Positions 1-7,041 of a stretch of 7,041 nucleotides of DNA are shown piece after piece. How positions within the stretch are numbered: the stretch's first letter is position 1; each line of letters starts with the position of its first letter. A program made the position numbers and the translations under genes. Origin of the DNA: a virus (Duplodnaviria > Heunggongvirae > Uroviricota > Caudoviricetes); IMG/VR virus record IMGVR_UViG_2690316109_000023; one strand, given 5' to 3'. Below the pieces are notes generated by a model, which was not told where the DNA came from, ran no database searches, and worked only from the letters and a program-made list of their open reading frames with translations.

Positions 1-360
1 CGTAAAAAATACCGCAAAAACGCGGTCTGGGTGGTTAACTCCACGACGGCGGCAAAACTTCAGAAGGTGAAGAACGCGAACGGTGATTACATCTGGCGCG
101 ACCGTTTACAGGCGGGTGATCCTGATACGTTGCTGGGCCTTCCGGTCGAATATCTGGAGTTTATGCCTGATAACGTTATTGCCCTGGGTGACTTCAAACG
201 CGGTTACTACATTGTTGATCACGAAACAGGTGTTCGCACCAGACCGGACAACCTCACAGAGCCGGGCTTCATCAAAATTTTCACGCAGAAATATTTAGGC
301 GGTGGCGTGGTGGATTCGAACGCGATCAAGATTCTGGAACTGCCACAGGACGACGATTAA
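1..360 (+). CDS. Major capsid protein, HK97 family (C-terminal part; 5' end is outside the window)
   Basis: Frame 1 is open from base 1 to TAA at 358-360. The translation contains LLGLPVEYLEFMP and GDFKRGYYIVDHE, which resemble the conserved C-terminal motifs of HK97-fold capsid proteins as I remember them (LLG.PV...MP and GDF.RGY.IVDR). Sits in a head-gene cluster. Confidence 0.8.
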   Translation, partial: RKKYRKNAVWVVNSTTAAKLQKVKNANGDYIWRDRLQAGDPDTLLGLPVEYLEFMPDNVIALGDFKRGYYIVDHETGVRTRPDNLTEPGFIKIFTQKYLGGGVVDSNAIKILELPQDDD

Positions 361-370
361 CAGCATACAG

Positions 371-399
371 AAGGGGCTTAAAAGCCCCTTTAGTGTTTT
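371..399 (+). terminator. Candidate rho-independent terminator / attenuator after the capsid gene
   Basis: Inverted repeat AAGGGGCT (371-378) / AGCCCCTT (383-390) with loop TTAA, followed by the T-rich TTTAGTGTTTTA. The U-tract is interrupted, so termination is probably partial. Confidence 0.4.
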
Positions 400-414
400 A
401 TGGGTGAAAAAATT

Positions 415-972
415 ATGAAGAGTATGGAAATCCGGTCATCGGAAATCACTACCAGCGGAGCCGGTACGCTGACGGGCTACGTTGTTCGCTGGGATAAGCT
501 TTCAGAACTGCTATGGGGGGAGTTTTACGAAAAATTCCAGCGGGGGGCGTTTACTGAGTGGCTTGCGGCGGGTAATGACGTTCGCGGCCTGTATGAGCAT
601 GACCACAGCATGTTACTGGGGCGCACCCGTTCCGGCACGCTGAAACTGGAAGAGGACGAAACAGGGTTACGCTTTGAACTGACCCCACCGGATACCAGTA
701 CAGGGCGCGACGTTATCGAACTGGTTAAACGAGGTGATATATCCGGCATGAGCTTTGGCTTTCGTTCCCGTAAGGATGTATGGGATACCACAACAGATCC
801 ATGCGTGCGCACCGTGCTGGTGGCGGAACTATACGAAATTACCGTTACATCCGTACCGGCTTACCCTGATTCCGGCGTGGAGCTGGCCCGCCGCTCCCTG
901 TACGAGCAGCACCCCGAAAAAATGCCGCGTGCGGATAATCGCCGCTGGTGGGCGGATTTAGCGGGGGTGTGA
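415..972 (+). CDS. Prohead maturation protease, HK97 family (peptidase S78/U35)
   Basis: The translation contains HDHSMLLGRTRSGTL and KRGDISGMSFGF, typical of HK97 prohead proteases. Start is ambiguous: ATG at 400 has no RBS, ATG at 415 has GGTGA 7 nt upstream, ATG at 424 is also in frame. Stop TGA 970-972 lies 1 nt before the portal ATG. Confidence 0.85.
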   Translation: MKSMEIRSSEITTSGAGTLTGYVVRWDKLSELLWGEFYEKFQRGAFTEWLAAGNDVRGLYEHDHSMLLGRTRSGTLKLEEDETGLRFELTPPDTSTGRDVIELVKRGDISGMSFGFRSRKDVWDTTTDPCVRTVLVAELYEITVTSVPAYPDSGVELARRSLYEQHPEKMPRADNRRWWADLAGV

Positions 973-973
973 T

Positions 974-2185
974 ATGTGGCCTTTCAGAAGAAAAAAAGAG
1001 CAGCGCAGCATGACGCTTGATGAGTTTATGGCGCTGGCTGGCACATCGAACACGGGGGCGGGTGAGTACGTATCATCGGGGACAGCGGAATCACTGCCCG
1101 CCGTCATGAACGCCGTCACGGTCATCTCTGAGGCGGTGGCTACCATGCCGTGTTACCTGTACCTGGTACGCAATGAGAAGGGGAAGGAGGCCCGAGAGTG
1201 GCTTGATTCTCATCCGGTCGATCACATCCTCAACGAGCGCCCGAACGCATGGCAGACCCCCTACCAGTTTAAGCGAATGATGATCCGCCACTGCCTGTTA
1301 AACGGTAATGCTTATGCGGTGATTCAGTGGGGGCGTGATGGTTTTCCGGTGGCTTTGCATCCTTACCCGCCGCAGTCGGTGAACGTGGAGCAGACAGGTG
1401 AGCATAACTGGCGCTACTGCATCACTGACGCCTACACCGGAAACACCCGCAACTATTTACCGTGGGAGGTTCTCCACCTTCGTTACTCCACGGATGACGG
1501 TTTTATGGGGCGCTCACCTGTAACCATCTGCCGCGAATCGCTGGGGCTTGGGCTGGCCCAACAACGCCACGGCGCGAGCGTGATGCGTGATGGCATGATG
1601 GCGGCAGGGGTTATCACGTCAGGCGAATGGCTGGACGGCGTGAAGGGCAAACAGGCATTAGCCGCACTGGAACGCTACAAAGGGGCCAGAAACGCCGGAA
1701 AAACGCCCATCCTTGAAGGGGGTATGAGCTATCAGCAGCTGGGCATGAGTAATCAGGATGCTGAATGGCTGGCCTCCCGTCGCTTCACCATTGAAGACAT
1801 CGCCCGAATGTTCAACGTCTCGCCGATTTTTTTGCAGGAATACAGCAACAGCACCTACAGCAATTTCAGCGAGGCAAGCCGCGCATTTCTCACCATGACG
1901 ATGCGCCCGTGGCTGGCGAACTTTGAGCAGCAGATAAAAAACGCCCTGCTGGTGGCCTCACCTGTACCTGGTATCCGGTATCAGGTGGAGTTTGACAGCG
2001 CGGACCTGTTACGGGCCACACCTGGCGAACGCTTTGCCACCTATGAACGCGGCATCAAATCCGGCGTTATGTGCCCGAACGAAGCCCGCGAACGTGAAGG
2101 GCTGTCCCCGCGTGATGGTGGTGATGAGTTCAGCCAGGCATGGAAACAGGAAGTAAAAATCAGCGAGGGAGAAAAACCGGAATGA
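974..2185 (+). CDS. Portal protein, HK97 family
   Basis: 403-aa ORF of portal-like size and composition, placed between protease and head-tail adaptor. GGGGG RBS upstream. Stop overlaps the next start (ATGA at 2182-2185). Confidence 0.88.
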   Translation: MWPFRRKKEQRSMTLDEFMALAGTSNTGAGEYVSSGTAESLPAVMNAVTVISEAVATMPCYLYLVRNEKGKEAREWLDSHPVDHILNERPNAWQTPYQFKRMMIRHCLLNGNAYAVIQWGRDGFPVALHPYPPQSVNVEQTGEHNWRYCITDAYTGNTRNYLPWEVLHLRYSTDDGFMGRSPVTICRESLGLGLAQQRHGASVMRDGMMAAGVITSGEWLDGVKGKQALAALERYKGARNAGKTPILEGGMSYQQLGMSNQDAEWLASRRFTIEDIARMFNVSPIFLQEYSNSTYSNFSEASRAFLTMTMRPWLANFEQQIKNALLVASPVPGIRYQVEFDSADLLRATPGERFATYERGIKSGVMCPNEAREREGLSPRDGGDEFSQAWKQEVKISEGEKPE

Positions 2186-2520
2186 ACATAGGGCGACTGC
2201 GTGACAGGGTAACGATTCAGACCCTGAAACAGACCAGGGATATAACCGGCGAAATACTCGAAACGTGGGAGGACGGTCACACACTCTGGGCAAGCGTGAA
2301 CATGATCAGCAGCAAGGAGGCCATTTCATCGGGTGCAGAGCTGGCGATTGGTACCGTAAGGATCTGGATACGGTACCGGAAGGACATCAACGCCACCAGC
2401 CGGATAAAGGTCAGTACGGGGCCGCTGGCGGGGCGTGTACTGAATATCATCGGGCAGCCGCTGCCGGATGCCGCCAGGACACGCCTTGAAATTCTTTGTC
2501 GTGAGGGCGCGGAAAAATGA
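2182..2520 (+). CDS. Head-tail adaptor / head closure protein (Phage_H_T_join-like)
   Basis: N-terminus MNIGRLRDRVTIQ matches the G.LR.RVTIQ signature of head-tail adaptors. GAGGGA RBS 11 nt upstream. ATG 2182 overlaps the portal stop. An in-frame ATG at 2140 is a less likely start because it lies inside the portal gene. Confidence 0.8.
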   Translation: MNIGRLRDRVTIQTLKQTRDITGEILETWEDGHTLWASVNMISSKEAISSGAELAIGTVRIWIRYRKDINATSRIKVSTGPLAGRVLNIIGQPLPDAARTRLEILCREGAEK

Positions 2521-2837
2521 CAGAAGAACTTATCACCCATATAACCGGCGAAATACTCGAAACGTGGGTGGACGGTCACACACTCTGGGCAAGCGTGAAC
2601 ATGATCAGCAGCAAGGAGGCCATTTCATCGGGTGCAGAACTGGCGACTGGAACGGTAAGGATATGGATACGCTACAGGAAGGACATCAACGCCACCAGCC
2701 GGATAAAGGTCAATACGGGGCCGCTGGCGGGGCGTGTACTGAATATCATCGGGCAGCCGCTGCCGGATGCCGCCAGGACACGCCTTGAAATTCTTTGTCG
2801 TGAGGGCGCGGAAAAATGACAGAAGAACTTATCACCC
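2240..2837 (+). repeat. Tandem direct duplication of a 299-bp unit (copy 1 2240-2538, copy 2 2539-2837), 290/299 identical
   Basis: Base-by-base alignment of the two copies gives 9 mismatches (copy 1 positions 2270, 2340, 2348, 2352, 2355, 2364, 2373, 2377, 2414). The unit runs from codon ~20 of the adaptor gene to codon 7 of the connector gene. Confidence 0.92.
2517..2819 (+). CDS. Chimeric duplicate ORF: first 7 codons of the gp6-like connector (MTEELIT) fused in frame to adaptor residues ~21-112; possibly a pseudogene or accessory paralog
   Basis: Created by the 299-bp tandem duplication. ATG 2517 overlaps the adaptor stop (ATGA) and its own stop overlaps the connector ATG at 2816. Differs from the parental adaptor by 3 amino acids (E to V, I to T, S to N). 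Confidence 0.5.
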   Translation: MTEELITHITGEILETWVDGHTLWASVNMISSKEAISSGAELATGTVRIWIRYRKDINATSRIKVNTGPLAGRVLNIIGQPLPDAARTRLEILCREGAEK

Positions 2838-3112
2838 TGGAAGAAGTGAAACTCCATTGCCGCATCGATGGCGACGAGGAAGACCAGTTAATCAGCGGAT
2901 ACATTGCCGCATCGCTTGAGGCGTGCCAGATACACATAGGCAGGCGCTTTGATGACGGGCTGGAGTTCACGCCAGCCATAAAGATTGGCTGCATGATGTT
3001 TATCGCTCACCTGTATGAAAATCGCCAGATTGTCGCGGATAACGCAAAAACACGCGTACCCATGACGATTGGTGCACTCTGGACGGCTTACCGTGATGTG
3101 GGGGTGTACTGA
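2816..3112 (+). CDS. gp6-like head-tail connector protein
   Basis: N-terminus MTEELITLEEVKLHCRIDGDEEDQLISGYIAA resembles the gp6-like head-tail connector family. Stop TGA 3110-3112 overlaps the HNH ATG at 3112. Confidence 0.8.
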   Translation: MTEELITLEEVKLHCRIDGDEEDQLISGYIAASLEACQIHIGRRFDDGLEFTPAIKIGCMMFIAHLYENRQIVADNAKTRVPMTIGALWTAYRDVGVY

Positions 3113-3552
3113 TGCCGTGGCAACCATTAAGACGATGCACAGAACCAGGCTGTAACAGGCGCGTGAAGTCCGGCAAGTGTGAGGAGCACAGGCGGGCGGC
3201 ATGGCGTGCAGAGGATGCCAGACGAGGACACCGCCGCGCGCGTGGGTACTCCAGACAGTGGGAAAAATACCGCGCCATGTATCTGAGTAAAAACCCGTTA
3301 TGCGTGCGATGCCTTGAGAAGGGGATATATACGCCCGCCGTGGTGGTGGATCACATTATCCCGATTAATGGCGGTGATGATGTTCTCTTCTGGCCCGAAT
3401 GGAACCATCAGCCATTGTGCCAGGCGTGTCATAACCAGAAAACGAAGTGGCTTGATCCGGCAACAAAAAGCAAGCGTGCCGCTGGCGGATTCCGTGAGGA
3501 GGAAGAACGGGCCGCTAACCGCAATAACTGGATGTATGACGCTGATGAATGA
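3112..3552 (+). CDS. HNH endonuclease (terminase-associated)
   Basis: Cysteine pairs CTEPGC and CVRC, plus VVDHIIP and NHQPLCQACHNQKT, form an HNH/zinc-finger motif set. Located immediately upstream of terS/terL as in HNH-cos packaging systems. Confidence 0.88.
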   Translation: MPWQPLRRCTEPGCNRRVKSGKCEEHRRAAWRAEDARRGHRRARGYSRQWEKYRAMYLSKNPLCVRCLEKGIYTPAVVVDHIIPINGGDDVLFWPEWNHQPLCQACHNQKTKWLDPATKSKRAAGGFREEEERAANRNNWMYDADE

Positions 3553-3718
3553 GCGGGAACAAAACCGCCTTATCCGTGGACTTATAAGGCAGCGTGACGC
3601 ATGGAAGACACAGGAAACAGGGCATAAAGATAAAGCGTCAGGACGCGCAGAACGCATCACAGCGAAGCGATTAACCGACCGTGACCGCGAGGTTATGGAA
3701 TGTTTCCGCAATCGCTGA
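3545..3718 (+). CDS. Hypothetical small basic protein (57 aa)
   Basis: ORF MNEREQNRLIRGLIRQRDAWK... starts at an ATG overlapping the HNH stop (ATGAATGA), suggesting translational coupling. An in-frame ATG at 3536 is an alternative start. No recognisable domain. Confidence 0.35.
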   Translation: MNEREQNRLIRGLIRQRDAWKTQETGHKDKASGRAERITAKRLTDRDREVMECFRNR

Positions 3719-3842
3719 TGAGGCTGTATGACGGGGTGGGGGGGCGTTTTCAGGACAAACCCGACCCCGCCGGGCACCGAACGCCTCCTCAAATTTTTAT
3801 GCACGGGAATTTTTTGAAAAATAATCTGGCGAAAAAATAAGC
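3719..3842. other. Intergenic region between the HNH-side genes and terS; candidate cos/packaging site
   Basis: G-rich ACGGGGTGGGGGGG (3731-3744) and C-rich CCCGACCCCGCC (3760-3771) form an imperfect inverted repeat (CGGGGTGGGG vs reverse complement CGGGGTCGGG) around an 18-bp spacer, followed by AT-rich DNA. Its position matches where cos lies in HK97-type HNH-dependent systems. Confidence 0.25.
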
Positions 3843-4199
3843 ATGGCAAGACCACCGAAAGCCCCCGCCTACCTGGATGATATCGCCGTGAAGCAGTGGC
3901 GGGAAAAATCGCGGCAGCTTGCGGAACGGGGAGACCTTACCCCCGCCGACTGGAGTAATCTGGAACTGTATTGCGTCAATTACTCGATATACCGGAAAGC
4001 CGTCGCAGACCTTGCGGCACGCGGGTTCAGCATTGTTAACAGTCAGGGCGGCGAGAGCAGAAACCCCGCATTAAGCGCAAAATCCGACGCTGAAAGAGTG
4101 ATGATAAAAATGGCCTCCTTGCTCGGTTTTGACCCGGTAAGCCGCCGTAAAAATCCACCGGAAACAGAAGAAGAGGACGAGCTTGACCGCCTGGAATAA
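3843..4199 (+). CDS. Terminase small subunit (P27 family-like)
   Basis: 118-aa ORF starting MARPPKAPAYLD with an acidic C-terminal tail (ETEEEDELDRLE), immediately upstream of and overlapping the large terminase. Confidence 0.8.
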   Translation: MARPPKAPAYLDDIAVKQWREKSRQLAERGDLTPADWSNLELYCVNYSIYRKAVADLAARGFSIVNSQGGESRNPALSAKSDAERVMIKMASLLGFDPVSRRKNPPETEEEDELDRLE

Positions 4200-5844
4200 G
4201 TACGCAGAAGACGTAAAAACGGGCAAAATTCCGGCCTGTAAACGGTTAAAACAGGCTGTTAAACGGTACTTTTCGGACCTTAAAAGCCCCCTTTACACGT
4301 TCGATCGTGAGGTTGTGGAGCGGTTTATTGCCTTTTCCAGGGTGTGCCCGCACGTAAAAGGGCCGATGCGTGGCAGACCCATTGAGCTGGAGCCGTGGCA
4401 GCAGTTCGCCTTTGCGTGCATCCTCGGCTTTAAGGTTAAGGCCACCGGACGGCGCAAATACACGAGCGCCTTTATCGAAGTGCCGCGCAAAAATGCGAAA
4501 TCCACGACCGCCGCGATTCTGGCTGACTGGTTTCTGATTATGGAGAACGGTCAGCAGGATATTTACACCGCAGCGGTGAGCCGTGACCAGGCGCGGATCG
4601 TCTTTGATGATGCGCGTCAGATGTGCCTTTTATCCCGACCGTTACGCAGGCGGGTGAATATTCAGGCGCATAAGGTGATACACCCGAAAAGCAACAGCCT
4701 GTTAAAGCCGCTGGCAGCAAAAGCGGCAACCATCGAGGGAACAAACCCCAGCCTTTCCATCGTGGACGAATACCACTTGCACCCCGATAACGGCGTTTAT
4801 TCCGCGCTTGAGCTGGGGATGGGCGCACGTCCCGAAGGGCTGTTATTTGCCATTACCACATCAGGCAGCAACGTCGTTTCAGCCTGTAAGCAGCACTATG
4901 ATTATTGCTGCCAGATCCTGGACGGCGAAGAGGTTAACGATTCAATTTTTGTACTGATTTACGAACTGGACGACGAAAACGAGGTTGATGATCCGGCGAT
5001 GTGGATAAAGGCGAACCCTAATATTGATGTTTCCGTGGATCGTGAAAAACTGGCCTCAACCATCCAGAAAGCGCGGGGTATTCCGTCGCAGTGGGTGGAG
5101 ATGATGACAAAGCGATTTAATATCTGGTGTCAGGGGACTACCCCGTGGATGGGTAACGGCGCATGGGCTGAGTGTGCCGGAACGTTCACGGAGGAAGATT
5201 TACACGGCCAGGAGTGTTACGCGGGGCTGGATTTATCATCCACAAGCGATATTTCCAGCGTGTGCTATGCCTTTCCGGTCGGTAAAACCATTATGCTGGT
5301 TTCCCGTCATTATCTGCCGGAGTTCCAGCTACAGAACCCCGCCAATAAAAACCGCGCTGTCTATCGTCAGTGGGCTAAAGCAGGCTGGATACGCACAACG
5401 CCAGGTGACTGCATTGATTACGACCGGATCAGAGATGACATCATGCAGGACGCGGAGAAATTTAATATCAGGCTGGTGGGCTTTGATACGTGGAACGCCA
5501 CGCATCTCAGGACGCAATTACAGGGGGCTGGTTTTGAGGTGGAGCCGTTCCCGCAAACCTACCTCAGATTCAGTCCGGCGGCGAAATCGTTCGAAGTTTT
5601 TGTTAACCGCAGGGTGATTGTGCATCGTGGCGATCCGGTGTTGTCCTGGTCGATGAGTAACGTCGTGATGCAGAGTGACGCGAACGCCAATATCAAGCCG
5701 AACAAGAAAAAATCACCGAACAAGATAGACCCGAGCGTGGCGGCGCTGATGGCGTTTGGTACATTCCAGGCAGAGCATGAGGATTTTGCTTTTGATATAA
5801 GCGACAGCCACCGCCAGAAACTGGAAGAATTTAGCGGGGTGTAA
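4183..5844 (+). CDS. Terminase large subunit (HK97-type)
   Basis: 553-aa ORF of TerL size placed directly after terS. The first in-frame start is TTG at 4183, overlapping the terS 3' end by 17 nt; the next in-frame Met is ~60 codons downstream, so the TTG start is the likely one. Confidence 0.88.
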   Translation: MTAWNKYAEDVKTGKIPACKRLKQAVKRYFSDLKSPLYTFDREVVERFIAFSRVCPHVKGPMRGRPIELEPWQQFAFACILGFKVKATGRRKYTSAFIEVPRKNAKSTTAAILADWFLIMENGQQDIYTAAVSRDQARIVFDDARQMCLLSRPLRRRVNIQAHKVIHPKSNSLLKPLAAKAATIEGTNPSLSIVDEYHLHPDNGVYSALELGMGARPEGLLFAITTSGSNVVSACKQHYDYCCQILDGEEVNDSIFVLIYELDDENEVDDPAMWIKANPNIDVSVDREKLASTIQKARGIPSQWVEMMTKRFNIWCQGTTPWMGNGAWAECAGTFTEEDLHGQECYAGLDLSSTSDISSVCYAFPVGKTIMLVSRHYLPEFQLQNPANKNRAVYRQWAKAGWIRTTPGDCIDYDRIRDDIMQDAEKFNIRLVGFDTWNATHLRTQLQGAGFEVEPFPQTYLRFSPAAKSFEVFVNRRVIVHRGDPVLSWSMSNVVMQSDANANIKPNKKKSPNKIDPSVAALMAFGTFQAEHEDFAFDISDSHRQKLEEFSGV

Positions 5845-5857
5845 TGAGGTCAGCAGC

Positions 5858-6139
5858 ATGACAGAAGCCGAAATAACGGGATTAATCCGCCGCGTTGCCG
5901 GAATCAGCCAGCAGGCTGACGAACAGGCCACGCAGCCGGACAGCGTGACAGCCGAAAACTATGCGCGTGTTGTTGCTGAGGTGATGCGCCGTGATGGTAT
6001 AGAACTTAATGGCGTGGATATGCGCAACATACGAACCAGAGTTCTTGAGTTGCTGGCCTACCGTCGCCGCGTGGAGATGTATCGGGAGAAGGAGAAAATA
6101 ACGTACCACTGGAAGAAGCCGGAGCGGTTGCGGCGGTAA
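5858..6139 (+). CDS. Hypothetical protein (93 aa), last gene of the module
   Basis: ATG 5858 with GAGG 8 nt upstream, 13 nt after the terL stop. Charged, arginine-rich C-terminus. No recognisable domain. Confidence 0.5.
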   Translation: MTEAEITGLIRRVAGISQQADEQATQPDSVTAENYARVVAEVMRRDGIELNGVDMRNIRTRVLELLAYRRRVEMYREKEKITYHWKKPERLRR

Positions 6140-6289
6140 CTGGTTGATATTCCCGACGGACCAAAAATGGGTGGCTACATCCCTCGCTTCTGAGGACTGT
6201 TAACAAGCTGCCTGAAAGACAGTCACAAACTACGAAATTTTCGCAGTTTAATTAATGATCAGCTTAATCGCTAACCCGCAGATATTTTC

Positions 6290-6700
6290 GGAAACCTCAA
6301 TTTGAGGAAGTCGGCGCGGTAACTCGCTGAACTTTAAGCAAAGCGCAAAATTGCGCTTGCTGAATAATCATTATGATTACGCAGATGATTAAGGAATGAC
6401 CGAAGGCGGAAATTCGCCTGTGGTTAATGGGGGAGTTGCAGATCTGCAACTCGACCATGAAACTACGGAAACTACCCGTAGTTTGGGTAGTAAGAGTAAC
6501 ACCCAGATTTTGGGTCTTACTCGTGATACCCAAATTTGGGGTATCAGTGGCAACCATAACGACTTTCGTTACGGTTGATGCTTTTACCCCATTGGGGGAA
6601 AGGTATTACGATAATCATAACACCTACCGAACAGGTAAAGCCCACCAGCCTGATTAACGTTTAACCGGAAAAAAATTCCGGTAGGTGGGGATCCCCATAT
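6290..6700. other. Hairpin/palindrome-dense non-coding region
   Basis: At least ten dyad elements in ~400 bp: 6295-6307, 6341-6358, 6405-6418, 6433-6452 (perfect 20-mer), 6463-6491, 6494-6522, 6525-6545, 6551-6577, 6587-6597, 6664-6682, 6686-6697 (perfect 12-mer). ORFs in this region are rich in rare codons and lack RBSs. Confidence 0.6.
6433..6452. promoter_or_regulatory. Perfect 20-bp palindrome GAGTTGCAGATCTGCAACTC; candidate dimeric-protein binding site
   Basis: Exact reverse-complement symmetry over 20 bp, verified base by base. Confidence 0.4.
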
Positions 6701-6808
6701 CGACATTAACGCCCCTCATGAATTGGTGCGCTTCCCCCTGGAAAGATGATCCGCCTGTATATTTCTTGTGTCTATTTGTTCCACGTTGTTTCATACAGTG
6801 CACCGAAC

Positions 6809-6832
6809 GGTGTAGTCACTGGTGTAGTCATT
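6809..6832 (+). repeat. Tandem 12-bp direct repeat GGTGTAGTCACT / GGTGTAGTCATT; candidate recombinase arm-type or regulator binding sites
   Basis: 11/12 identical adjacent repeats about 75-95 bp inside the putative element end. Confidence 0.4.
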
Positions 6833-6876
6833 TTGCGATTTTTGGCACTTTTTGTGGTGCAAATTATTTAATTAAA

Positions 6877-7041
6877 TCAATTAGTTAGGTTAAATAAGTT
6901 ATATATAACAGCAATAAATAATGCGAGAATAAACGGCACGATGATCTCGGCGGCAAAACGGATACCGCAGAGAATAATGACCAGCATTCCCAACATAATG
7001 ACGATTTTTAGGCCATTGAGCGTGATGATCGGCTTTGCCAT
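6877..7041 (-). pseudogene. tqsA: 5' fragment of an AI-2E family transporter gene (tqsA/ydgG-like): about 45 native codons, then 9 foreign codons and a stop
   Basis: Minus-strand ATG at 7039-7041 translates to [45 protein letters not shown], then IYNLFNLTN and stop (TGA complement at 6877-6879). The hydrophobic N-terminus matches my recollection of E. coli TqsA. Sequence becomes AT-rich and non-coding exactly where the match ends (~6906). Confidence 0.55.

Follow-up and report, generated by a model that had tools for sequence, protein, structure and literature searches.

Organization of the locus

The DNA analyzed here, the 7,041 nucleotides of IMG/VR record IMGVR_UViG_2690316109_000023 (the window), contains the morphogenesis and packaging operon of a capsid-forming phage-inducible chromosomal island (cf-PICI), followed by its right attachment site, attR. 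According to the list of open reading frames (ORFs) and to Pfam, all credible genes are located on the plus strand and fill positions 1 to 6139 nearly without gaps (Table 1). Adjacent genes overlap by 1–17 bases, the pattern expected when the genes of an operon are coupled in translation. Profile searches with each protein returned the expected Pfam and PHROG families and bore out the succession of capsid, protease and portal, then adaptor and connector, then HNH, terS and terL reported in a preliminary description of this DNA. The same description stated that the connector stop at 3112 abuts the HNH gene; indeed, the final base of that stop codon is also the first base of the HNH gene. Its gene list and end coordinate were correct in what they contained, but they missed a 299-bp tandem duplication with a chimeric ORF between adaptor and connector, a 60-amino-acid ORF (3536–3718) between HNH and terS, and a 5′-terminal piece of the host gene tqsA, on the minus strand, that makes up the last 137 bases. 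Regarding nomenclature, the "head-tail adaptor" of the cf-PICI papers is Hc1 and their "head-tail connector" is Ad1, although the PHROGs names sound opposite.

Table 1. Features of the window, with identities to the corresponding EcCIEDL933 proteins.
Feature	Position	Strand	Basis	Identity to EcCIEDL933
Major capsid protein, HK97 fold, C-terminal 119 codons and stop (residues 267–385 of 385)	1–360	+	PF05065, E 6e-24	119/119
Terminator-like GC-rich hairpin with T-rich tail, directly 3′ of the capsid stop	370–391	+	pattern scan	
Prohead serine protease, S78, HK97 family	400–972	+	PF04586, E 7e-48	186/190
Portal protein	974–2185	+	PF04860, E 9e-91	401/403
Head closure protein Hc1, intact copy, allele 1	2182–2520	+	PF05521 Phage_HCP, E 5e-23; PHROG 25 "head closure Hc1"	108/112
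Tandem duplication, 2 x 299 bp, perfect register	2240–2837 (2240–2538 / 2539–2837)	+	TRF (Tandem Repeats Finder) and repeat finder	
Chimeric ORF made by the duplication: MTEELIT (Ad1 N-terminal 7), H, then Hc1 residues 21–112, allele 2	2517–2819	+	translations	
gp6-like head-tail adaptor Ad1	2816–3112	+	PF05135, E 8e-12; PHROG 40 "head-tail adaptor Ad1"	98/98
HNH endonuclease, packaging accessory of HK97-type cos terminases	3112–3552	+	PF01844, E 2e-8; PHROG 144, E 9e-45	144/146
Conserved 60-amino-acid ORF	3536–3718	+	PHROG 3173, E 8e-37	60/60 (WP_000174068.1)
Putative cos region, G+C-rich block (GACGGGGTGGGGGGGCG...CCCGACCCCGCCGGGC) then A/T-rich stretch, just upstream of terS	3719–3842		conservation and position	
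Small terminase TerS, P27 family	3843–4199	+	PF05119, E 4e-24	117/118
Large terminase TerL, ATPase and nuclease domains	4183–5844	+	PF03354, PF20441	545/553
Conserved 93-amino-acid ORF after terL	5858–6139	+	PHROG 1561, E 3e-56	81/93 (87%)
Non-coding right arm of the island	6140–6904		765 bp without credible gene	
att core ATAACAGCA, attR copy, = tqsA nucleotides 129–137	6905–6913		alignment to empty site	
5′ fragment of host tqsA (autoinducer-2 (AI-2) transporter), interrupted by the island	6905–7041	-	137 bases, 99.3% identical to EDL933 tqsA	

The eight genes used to recognize cf-PICIs (He et al. 2025, methods) were all matched by Pfam or PHROG. Up to attR, no ORF of the window matched a tail, tape-measure, baseplate or lysis family in these two collections, in agreement with the earlier remark that the window lacks tail tube, tape-measure and baseplate ORFs. 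The layout is not the one of a complete HK97-like prophage, since Ad1 is directly followed by HNH and the island stops 766 bp past the last ORF. No Rfam family matched anywhere in the window, even with E values up to 1 allowed.

Comparison with the prototype EcCIEDL933

EcCIEDL933 is the prototype with which the cf-PICI class was defined experimentally; it measures 15.4 kb and carries int, alpA and rep together with a full set of capsid and packaging genes, but none for tails (Alqurainy et al., bioRxiv 10.1101/2022.09.08.507074). The window shows the same genes in the same order, and its capsid, protease, portal, Hc1, Ad1, HNH, 60-amino-acid ORF, TerS and TerL products are 96–100% identical to their EcCIEDL933 counterparts, with a DNA identity of 96.4–97.7%. 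Although the capsid gene is cut by the window edge, its 119 codons equal those of the prototype, and the full-length capsid protein of a near-identical island (L001, see below) is 100% identical to PDB 9GYI, the T=4 capsid of EcCIEDL933. The portal does not contain any window-specific residue; its solved relatives include HK97-type portals and the portal of the Rhodobacter capsulatus gene transfer agent (RcGTA).

The window thus almost certainly represents the right part (6.9 kb) of a cf-PICI that belongs to the EcCIEDL933 lineage and is integrated in tqsA of Escherichia coli. The former assignment to a cf-PICI-like element is supported by the protein identities, which only drop to 87% for the 93-amino-acid ORF, but the label of "candidate" was overstated for a member of the best-studied cf-PICI lineage. 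The order of the genes had been called non-canonical. This holds in comparison with phage HK106, but capsid-protease-portal-connectors-hnh-terS-terL has been published as the order conserved among proteobacterial cf-PICIs (bioRxiv 10.1101/2022.09.08.507074), and the window follows it.

The two islands differ by their integration sites. EcCIEDL933 was located in NZ_CP008957.1 at about 1.680–1.696 Mb, in the intergenic region between roxA and phoQ (locus L028, 8330–23600). An insertion of EcCIEDL933 in tqsA had been assumed and was rejected, since tqsA of EDL933 is uninterrupted and represents an empty site (locus L027, 13176–14210), and the island adjoins phoQ. They also differ by the right arm (6140–6904), where similarity is only patchy (75–90%), and by the 299-bp duplication, which EcCIEDL933 lacks. 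The replication protein is of the AAA_25 type in the closest relative of the window and of the DUF927 type in EDL933.

The properties of the prototype were established by mutagenesis. Inactivation of each of its packaging genes abolished transfer of the island and left transfer of the phage intact, with the exception of the "hypothetical gene 1792", the mutation of which severely cut transfer without abolishing it; conversely, helper mutants in capsid and packaging genes lost phage transfer and kept island transfer, while helper tail mutants lost both (bioRxiv 10.1101/2022.09.08.507074). Small capsids form even without phage capsids or tails, and induction requires AlpA and a helper such as HK106 (bioRxiv 10.1101/2022.09.08.507074).

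Related islands and their left halves

Of 5426 complete E. coli genomes, 359 (about 7%) contain at least 80% of the window, and the relatives are up to 99.9% identical. The closest one, NZ_CP182026.1 (L014), differs from the window by 3 of 2538 bases on the left and by 10 of 4503 on the right; nine of the latter correspond to allele sites within the duplicated copy. In the O157:H7 strain PV15-279 (L001), the island lies between the two halves of tqsA. A 9-bp core is present at either end, and the distance from one copy to the other is about 14.8 kb, which, like the 15.4 kb of EcCIEDL933, falls in the range of about 10–18 kb given for cf-PICIs between their att sites; the window itself shows the right boundary only. 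Its left half encodes an integrase, an AlpA-like regulator, an Icd-like protein, DUF4222, a primase, SSB and PerC, followed by the module of the window. About 20 further loci were obtained through exact matches to the Hc1 and TerL proteins of the window. Where their DNA reaches, they display an integrase, AlpA, a short variable region, DUF4222, a primase/helicase, SSB, PerC and the packaging module; the primase-helicase differs among loci (D5_N/DUF5906, AAA_25 or DUF927). AlpA of the near-identical relatives matches PF05930, and the left half of L014 gave PHROG matches to an integrase, an excisionase/regulator, a repressor and a primase-helicase.

It had been proposed to look upstream for an integrase, an alpA-like regulator and a primase, and that tail, lysis and lambdoid regulatory genes in an element above about 30 kb would instead denote an ordinary, rearranged prophage. 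The three former genes are present in L014, L001 and the about 20 loci, and are very probably located upstream of the window too, judging from these near-identical sequences. Neither a tail nor a lysis category was encountered in the left half of L014 (PHROG), in the L001 annotation or in the about 20 other loci, and the L001 island stays well below 30 kb.

This left half would speak for another possibility, namely that the window belongs to a classical, non-capsid-forming PICI or to a P4-like satellite remodelling the capsids of its helper. The int, alpA and primase genes of the relatives are of the classical type, and int, alpA and rep have been reported as identical to those of EcCICFT073 and EcCIED1a (bioRxiv 10.1101/2022.09.08.507074). 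Classical PICIs such as EcCICFT073, EcCIED1a and the Staphylococcus aureus pathogenicity islands (SaPIs) also resemble the present island in being helper-induced, about 10–15 kb long and packaged in small capsids. However, they redirect the capsid, portal and TerL of the helper (through CpmAB, Ccm, Rpp and TerS-S), whereas here capsid, protease, portal, Ad1, Hc1 and TerL are all encoded in the window, several of which are treated as excluding markers by SatelliteFinder (PMC10085698). The probability of a capsid-remodelling satellite is accordingly negligible.

The island family occupies at least two att sites, tqsA and roxA/phoQ, and in at least one genome, GCA_026135245.1 (L009 and L010), islands are found at both. 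Since a near-identical module is present at the two sites, the packaging module travels with different combinations of integrase and att site. The exact TerL protein was retrieved from 102 blocks of the gene-position index, and the ten places listed all share the layout of the island.

These data also bear on the idea that the window is a remnant of an HK97-like prophage, immobile after deletion of its tail, lysis and regulatory genes. Its proteins do fall in phage families, E. coli O157 genomes abound in defective prophages, and the 299-bp duplication constitutes one structural oddity. Yet the eight module genes and the two small conserved ORFs are all intact, the compact layout recurs in the 359 complete genomes at different att sites with a precise duplication of the 9-bp core, and simple deletion cannot create the order capsid-protease-portal-Hc1-Ad1, which differs from that of HK106. 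Among 50,697 phage records none covers at least 80% of the window, the best ones being 76–78% identical over 5–28% of it. Moreover, the prototype, with its 96–100% identical proteins, is mobile in experiments, and its helper-dependent packaging and transfer at high frequency have already been shown. Prophage decay is thus a very improbable origin for this island.

Gene order and head-tail interface compared with HK106

The helper phage HK106 (NC_019768) displays the order terS, terL, portal, protease, capsid, Ad1, Hc1, gp10, tail terminator and tail genes, in agreement with the order previously quoted for HK97-like phages (terS, terL, portal, protease, capsid, connectors, tail), and its HNH gene is at the far right end, adjoining cos. 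Phage and island have in common an HK97-fold capsid, a prohead protease, a portal, Ad1, Hc1 and HNH-assisted TerS/TerL cos packaging. Unlike HK106, the island is devoid of neck (gp10), tail terminator, tail, lysis and lambdoid regulation genes, and it runs capsid-protease-portal-Hc1-Ad1 where the phage runs portal-protease-capsid-Ad1-Hc1. If cos is situated at 3719–3842, as discussed below, the packaged genome would begin with terS-terL and end with HNH, as in HK97-type phages. What is truly different is that the head genes are at the right-hand end and that the order within each sub-block is reversed. As for the capsid itself, that of HK97 has T=7 symmetry, versus T=4 for the prototype island.

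The proteins of the two elements are unequally related. Hc1 is 49% identical to the HK106 Hc1 over all 112 residues (2182–2520 of the window versus 5496–5834 of L029), compared to 26% for the portal, 27% for TerL and 22% for Ad1; the protease and HNH reach up to about 39% over partial alignments, and capsid and TerS gave no significant match to HK106. The tail-facing protein has thus stayed near that of the helper while the remainder diverged, and on the basis of these alignments the closeness of Hc1 to its helper counterpart fits a role at the head-tail interface. Hc1 is also 110/112 identical to the protein of the nuclear magnetic resonance structure PDB 2KZ4, deposited as a "putative head-tail adaptor". 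An AlphaFold2 model of Hc1 computed without alignment had a mean pLDDT of 36 and was unusable.

Directly 3′ of the capsid gene, the hairpin at 370–391 folds as RNA with -17.3 kcal/mol (z -2.9), and it recurs unchanged in 16 cf-PICI loci that were retrieved, EcCIEDL933 included. HK106 likewise has an annotated terminator at the equivalent place 3′ of its capsid gene. Acting as a partial terminator behind a capsid gene that comes first, the hairpin would yield more capsid than downstream products.

Terminase genes and putative cos region

The 124 bp separating the 60-amino-acid ORF from terS are strongly conserved among the about 20 loci. In HK106 and HK97, the two ends of the genome fall between HNH and terS, and the putative cos of the island occupies the matching position, so that 3719–3842 is likely to be cos by analogy with these phages. 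Within this segment, the G-run of the window has one G more than most relatives, and the base at 3781 is unique to the window.

The 93-amino-acid ORF, for which no Pfam match was found, follows terL in every locus compared. Both this ORF and the 60-amino-acid ORF are part of the module in every locus, and either of them may correspond to the "hypothetical gene 1792" of EcCIEDL933.

Another system of small HK97-fold particles encoded in a bacterial chromosome is RcGTA (PDB 6TB9, 6TBA, 6TE9). Its capsid is the closest solved one after the element's own structure (E 3e-46), and its solved portal is clearly related (E 8e-20), with two other portals scoring better. RcGTA possesses its own tail genes, has neither an integrase nor a replication module, and packages random host DNA by a headful mechanism. 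This relationship, together with the small heads, would speak for a gene transfer agent (GTA)-like module that serves the host by filling small heads with random host DNA. Against this, att repeats bound the element, its relatives carry an integrase, AlpA and their own replication module, and HNH, TerS and a conserved putative cos are typical of sequence-specific cos packaging. The island is moreover without the tail genes that GTAs have, and the prototype specifically packages itself. A GTA-like function is consequently extremely unlikely for the cf-PICI described here.

Right arm and attachment site

The preliminary description placed the end of the element at about 6906, some 770 bp past the last ORF, which is very close to the actual position: the last conserved ORF ends at 6139 and the att core (6905–6913) lies 766 bp further on. 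The core was defined by aligning the right end of the window and the left junction of L001 to the empty tqsA of EDL933. The two junction alignments share exactly nine bases, ATAACAGCA, and the L001 annotation shows a partial AI-2 transporter gene at the same junction. In the literature no paper was found linking a cf-PICI with tqsA, a search that did not cover supplementary att-site tables.

In the right arm (6140–6904), ORFs gave no PHROG match and no Rfam match was obtained. Near the right end of the island, two GGTGTAGTCA repeats are found at 6809–6818 and 6821–6830, 12 bp apart. A 76-nt stretch with the GGTGTAGTCA pair recurs by the integrase end in L001 (7814–7889 and 22459–22534, 76% identical), and these repeats are possibly arm-type binding sites of the integrase. 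The segment 6400–6560 further contains a near-palindrome (6424–6461) and a number of short inverted repeats, such as ACCCAGATTTTGGGT and ACCCAAATTTGGGGT; no Rfam or protein family matched there.

Tandem duplication in the Hc1 and Ad1 genes

The duplicated unit spans from codon 20 of Hc1 to codon 7 of Ad1, and nine differences distinguish the two 299-bp copies. Intact Hc1, chimeric ORF and intact Ad1 remain joined by ATGA overlaps. The Pfam match of the chimera is restricted to profile positions 22–106 of 106, the first ~21 being missing in both Pfam and PHROG. Because these positions of the family profile are absent, the chimeric protein is probably defective, and judging from its sequence it could even disturb neck assembly.

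Copy 1 corresponds to the L014-type backbone allele, while copy 2 is identical to the L001 allele, with both of its flanks being of the L014 type, and the junction between the copies is without homology. Divergence outside the duplication is about 0.1%, versus nine changes in 299 bp between the copies, and mutation after duplication cannot explain such a difference. Being too divergent, the copies involve either a second island allele or an artefact introduced when sequences of a strain carrying two islands were assembled or polished. A simple unequal crossover between two parents was considered and rejected, since copy 2 alone is foreign, both its flanks are of the L014 type and the junction has no homology.

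The 358 complete E. coli genomes that contain the region all lack the duplication. An exact-protein look-up of the chimeric product in the gene-position index returned no gene. The junction was searched as a 34-mer, with no match in GTDB species representatives or JGI metagenomes, and as a 20-mer, with no match in IMG/VR or JGI metagenomes. If the duplication is real in the source strain, it would record a recombination of two co-resident cf-PICIs in the gene of the tail-docking protein Hc1, and the combination of a full-length and an N-terminally replaced Hc1 could alter or broaden the range of helper tails that are docked; taken as a whole, this reading appears very improbable to us.

Discussion

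The prototype capsid is a T=4 particle of 47.5 nm across, from which the 41.5-kb genome of the helper is excluded (He et al., bioRxiv 10.1101/2025.02.11.637232). The heads are released without tails and then pick up free ones, adaptor and connector setting the fit of the tail (bioRxiv 10.1101/2025.02.11.637232). The steps that follow have been shown for the prototype, and we extend them to the window on the strength of the 96–100% protein identity. Induction of a helper prophage, for instance HK106, would switch on AlpA of the island, which would then excise and replicate. The operon of the window would be expressed, and the capsid protein, which the S78 protease would mature on a portal vertex, would form a small T=4 head holding about 15 kb; a head of this size would exclude the ~41-kb genome of the helper. 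HNH, TerS and TerL of the island would cut its own cos, probably at 3719–3842, and package island monomers only. Ad1 and Hc1 would close the portal to give stable tail-less heads, and docking of these heads onto free tails made by the helper would render them infective.

Four points weigh against reading the window as part of a functional cf-PICI of this lineage. The integrase, alpA and rep genes and the upstream lack of tail genes are deduced from sequences of relatives, not from this molecule; the location of cos is putative and derives from position and conservation; the use of a helper by this variant is presumed by analogy with the prototype; and the duplication adds a truncated Hc1, which might lower the fitness of this copy or render it non-functional.

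cf-PICIs have shown that a satellite can supply all of its head and packaging proteins itself, a phage contributing only the tails, and their tail-less heads can acquire the tails of different phages and thereby cross species boundaries. The element in the window has already been described and is not novel, its lineage being experimentally dissected and the best-studied of its class. The interest of the window is low for this reason: as one more copy of the prototype lineage, it adds nothing new to this picture. Its sole possible new value lies in the allele-mixed Hc1 duplication which, if real, would be a natural snapshot of tail-specificity determinants being reshuffled.

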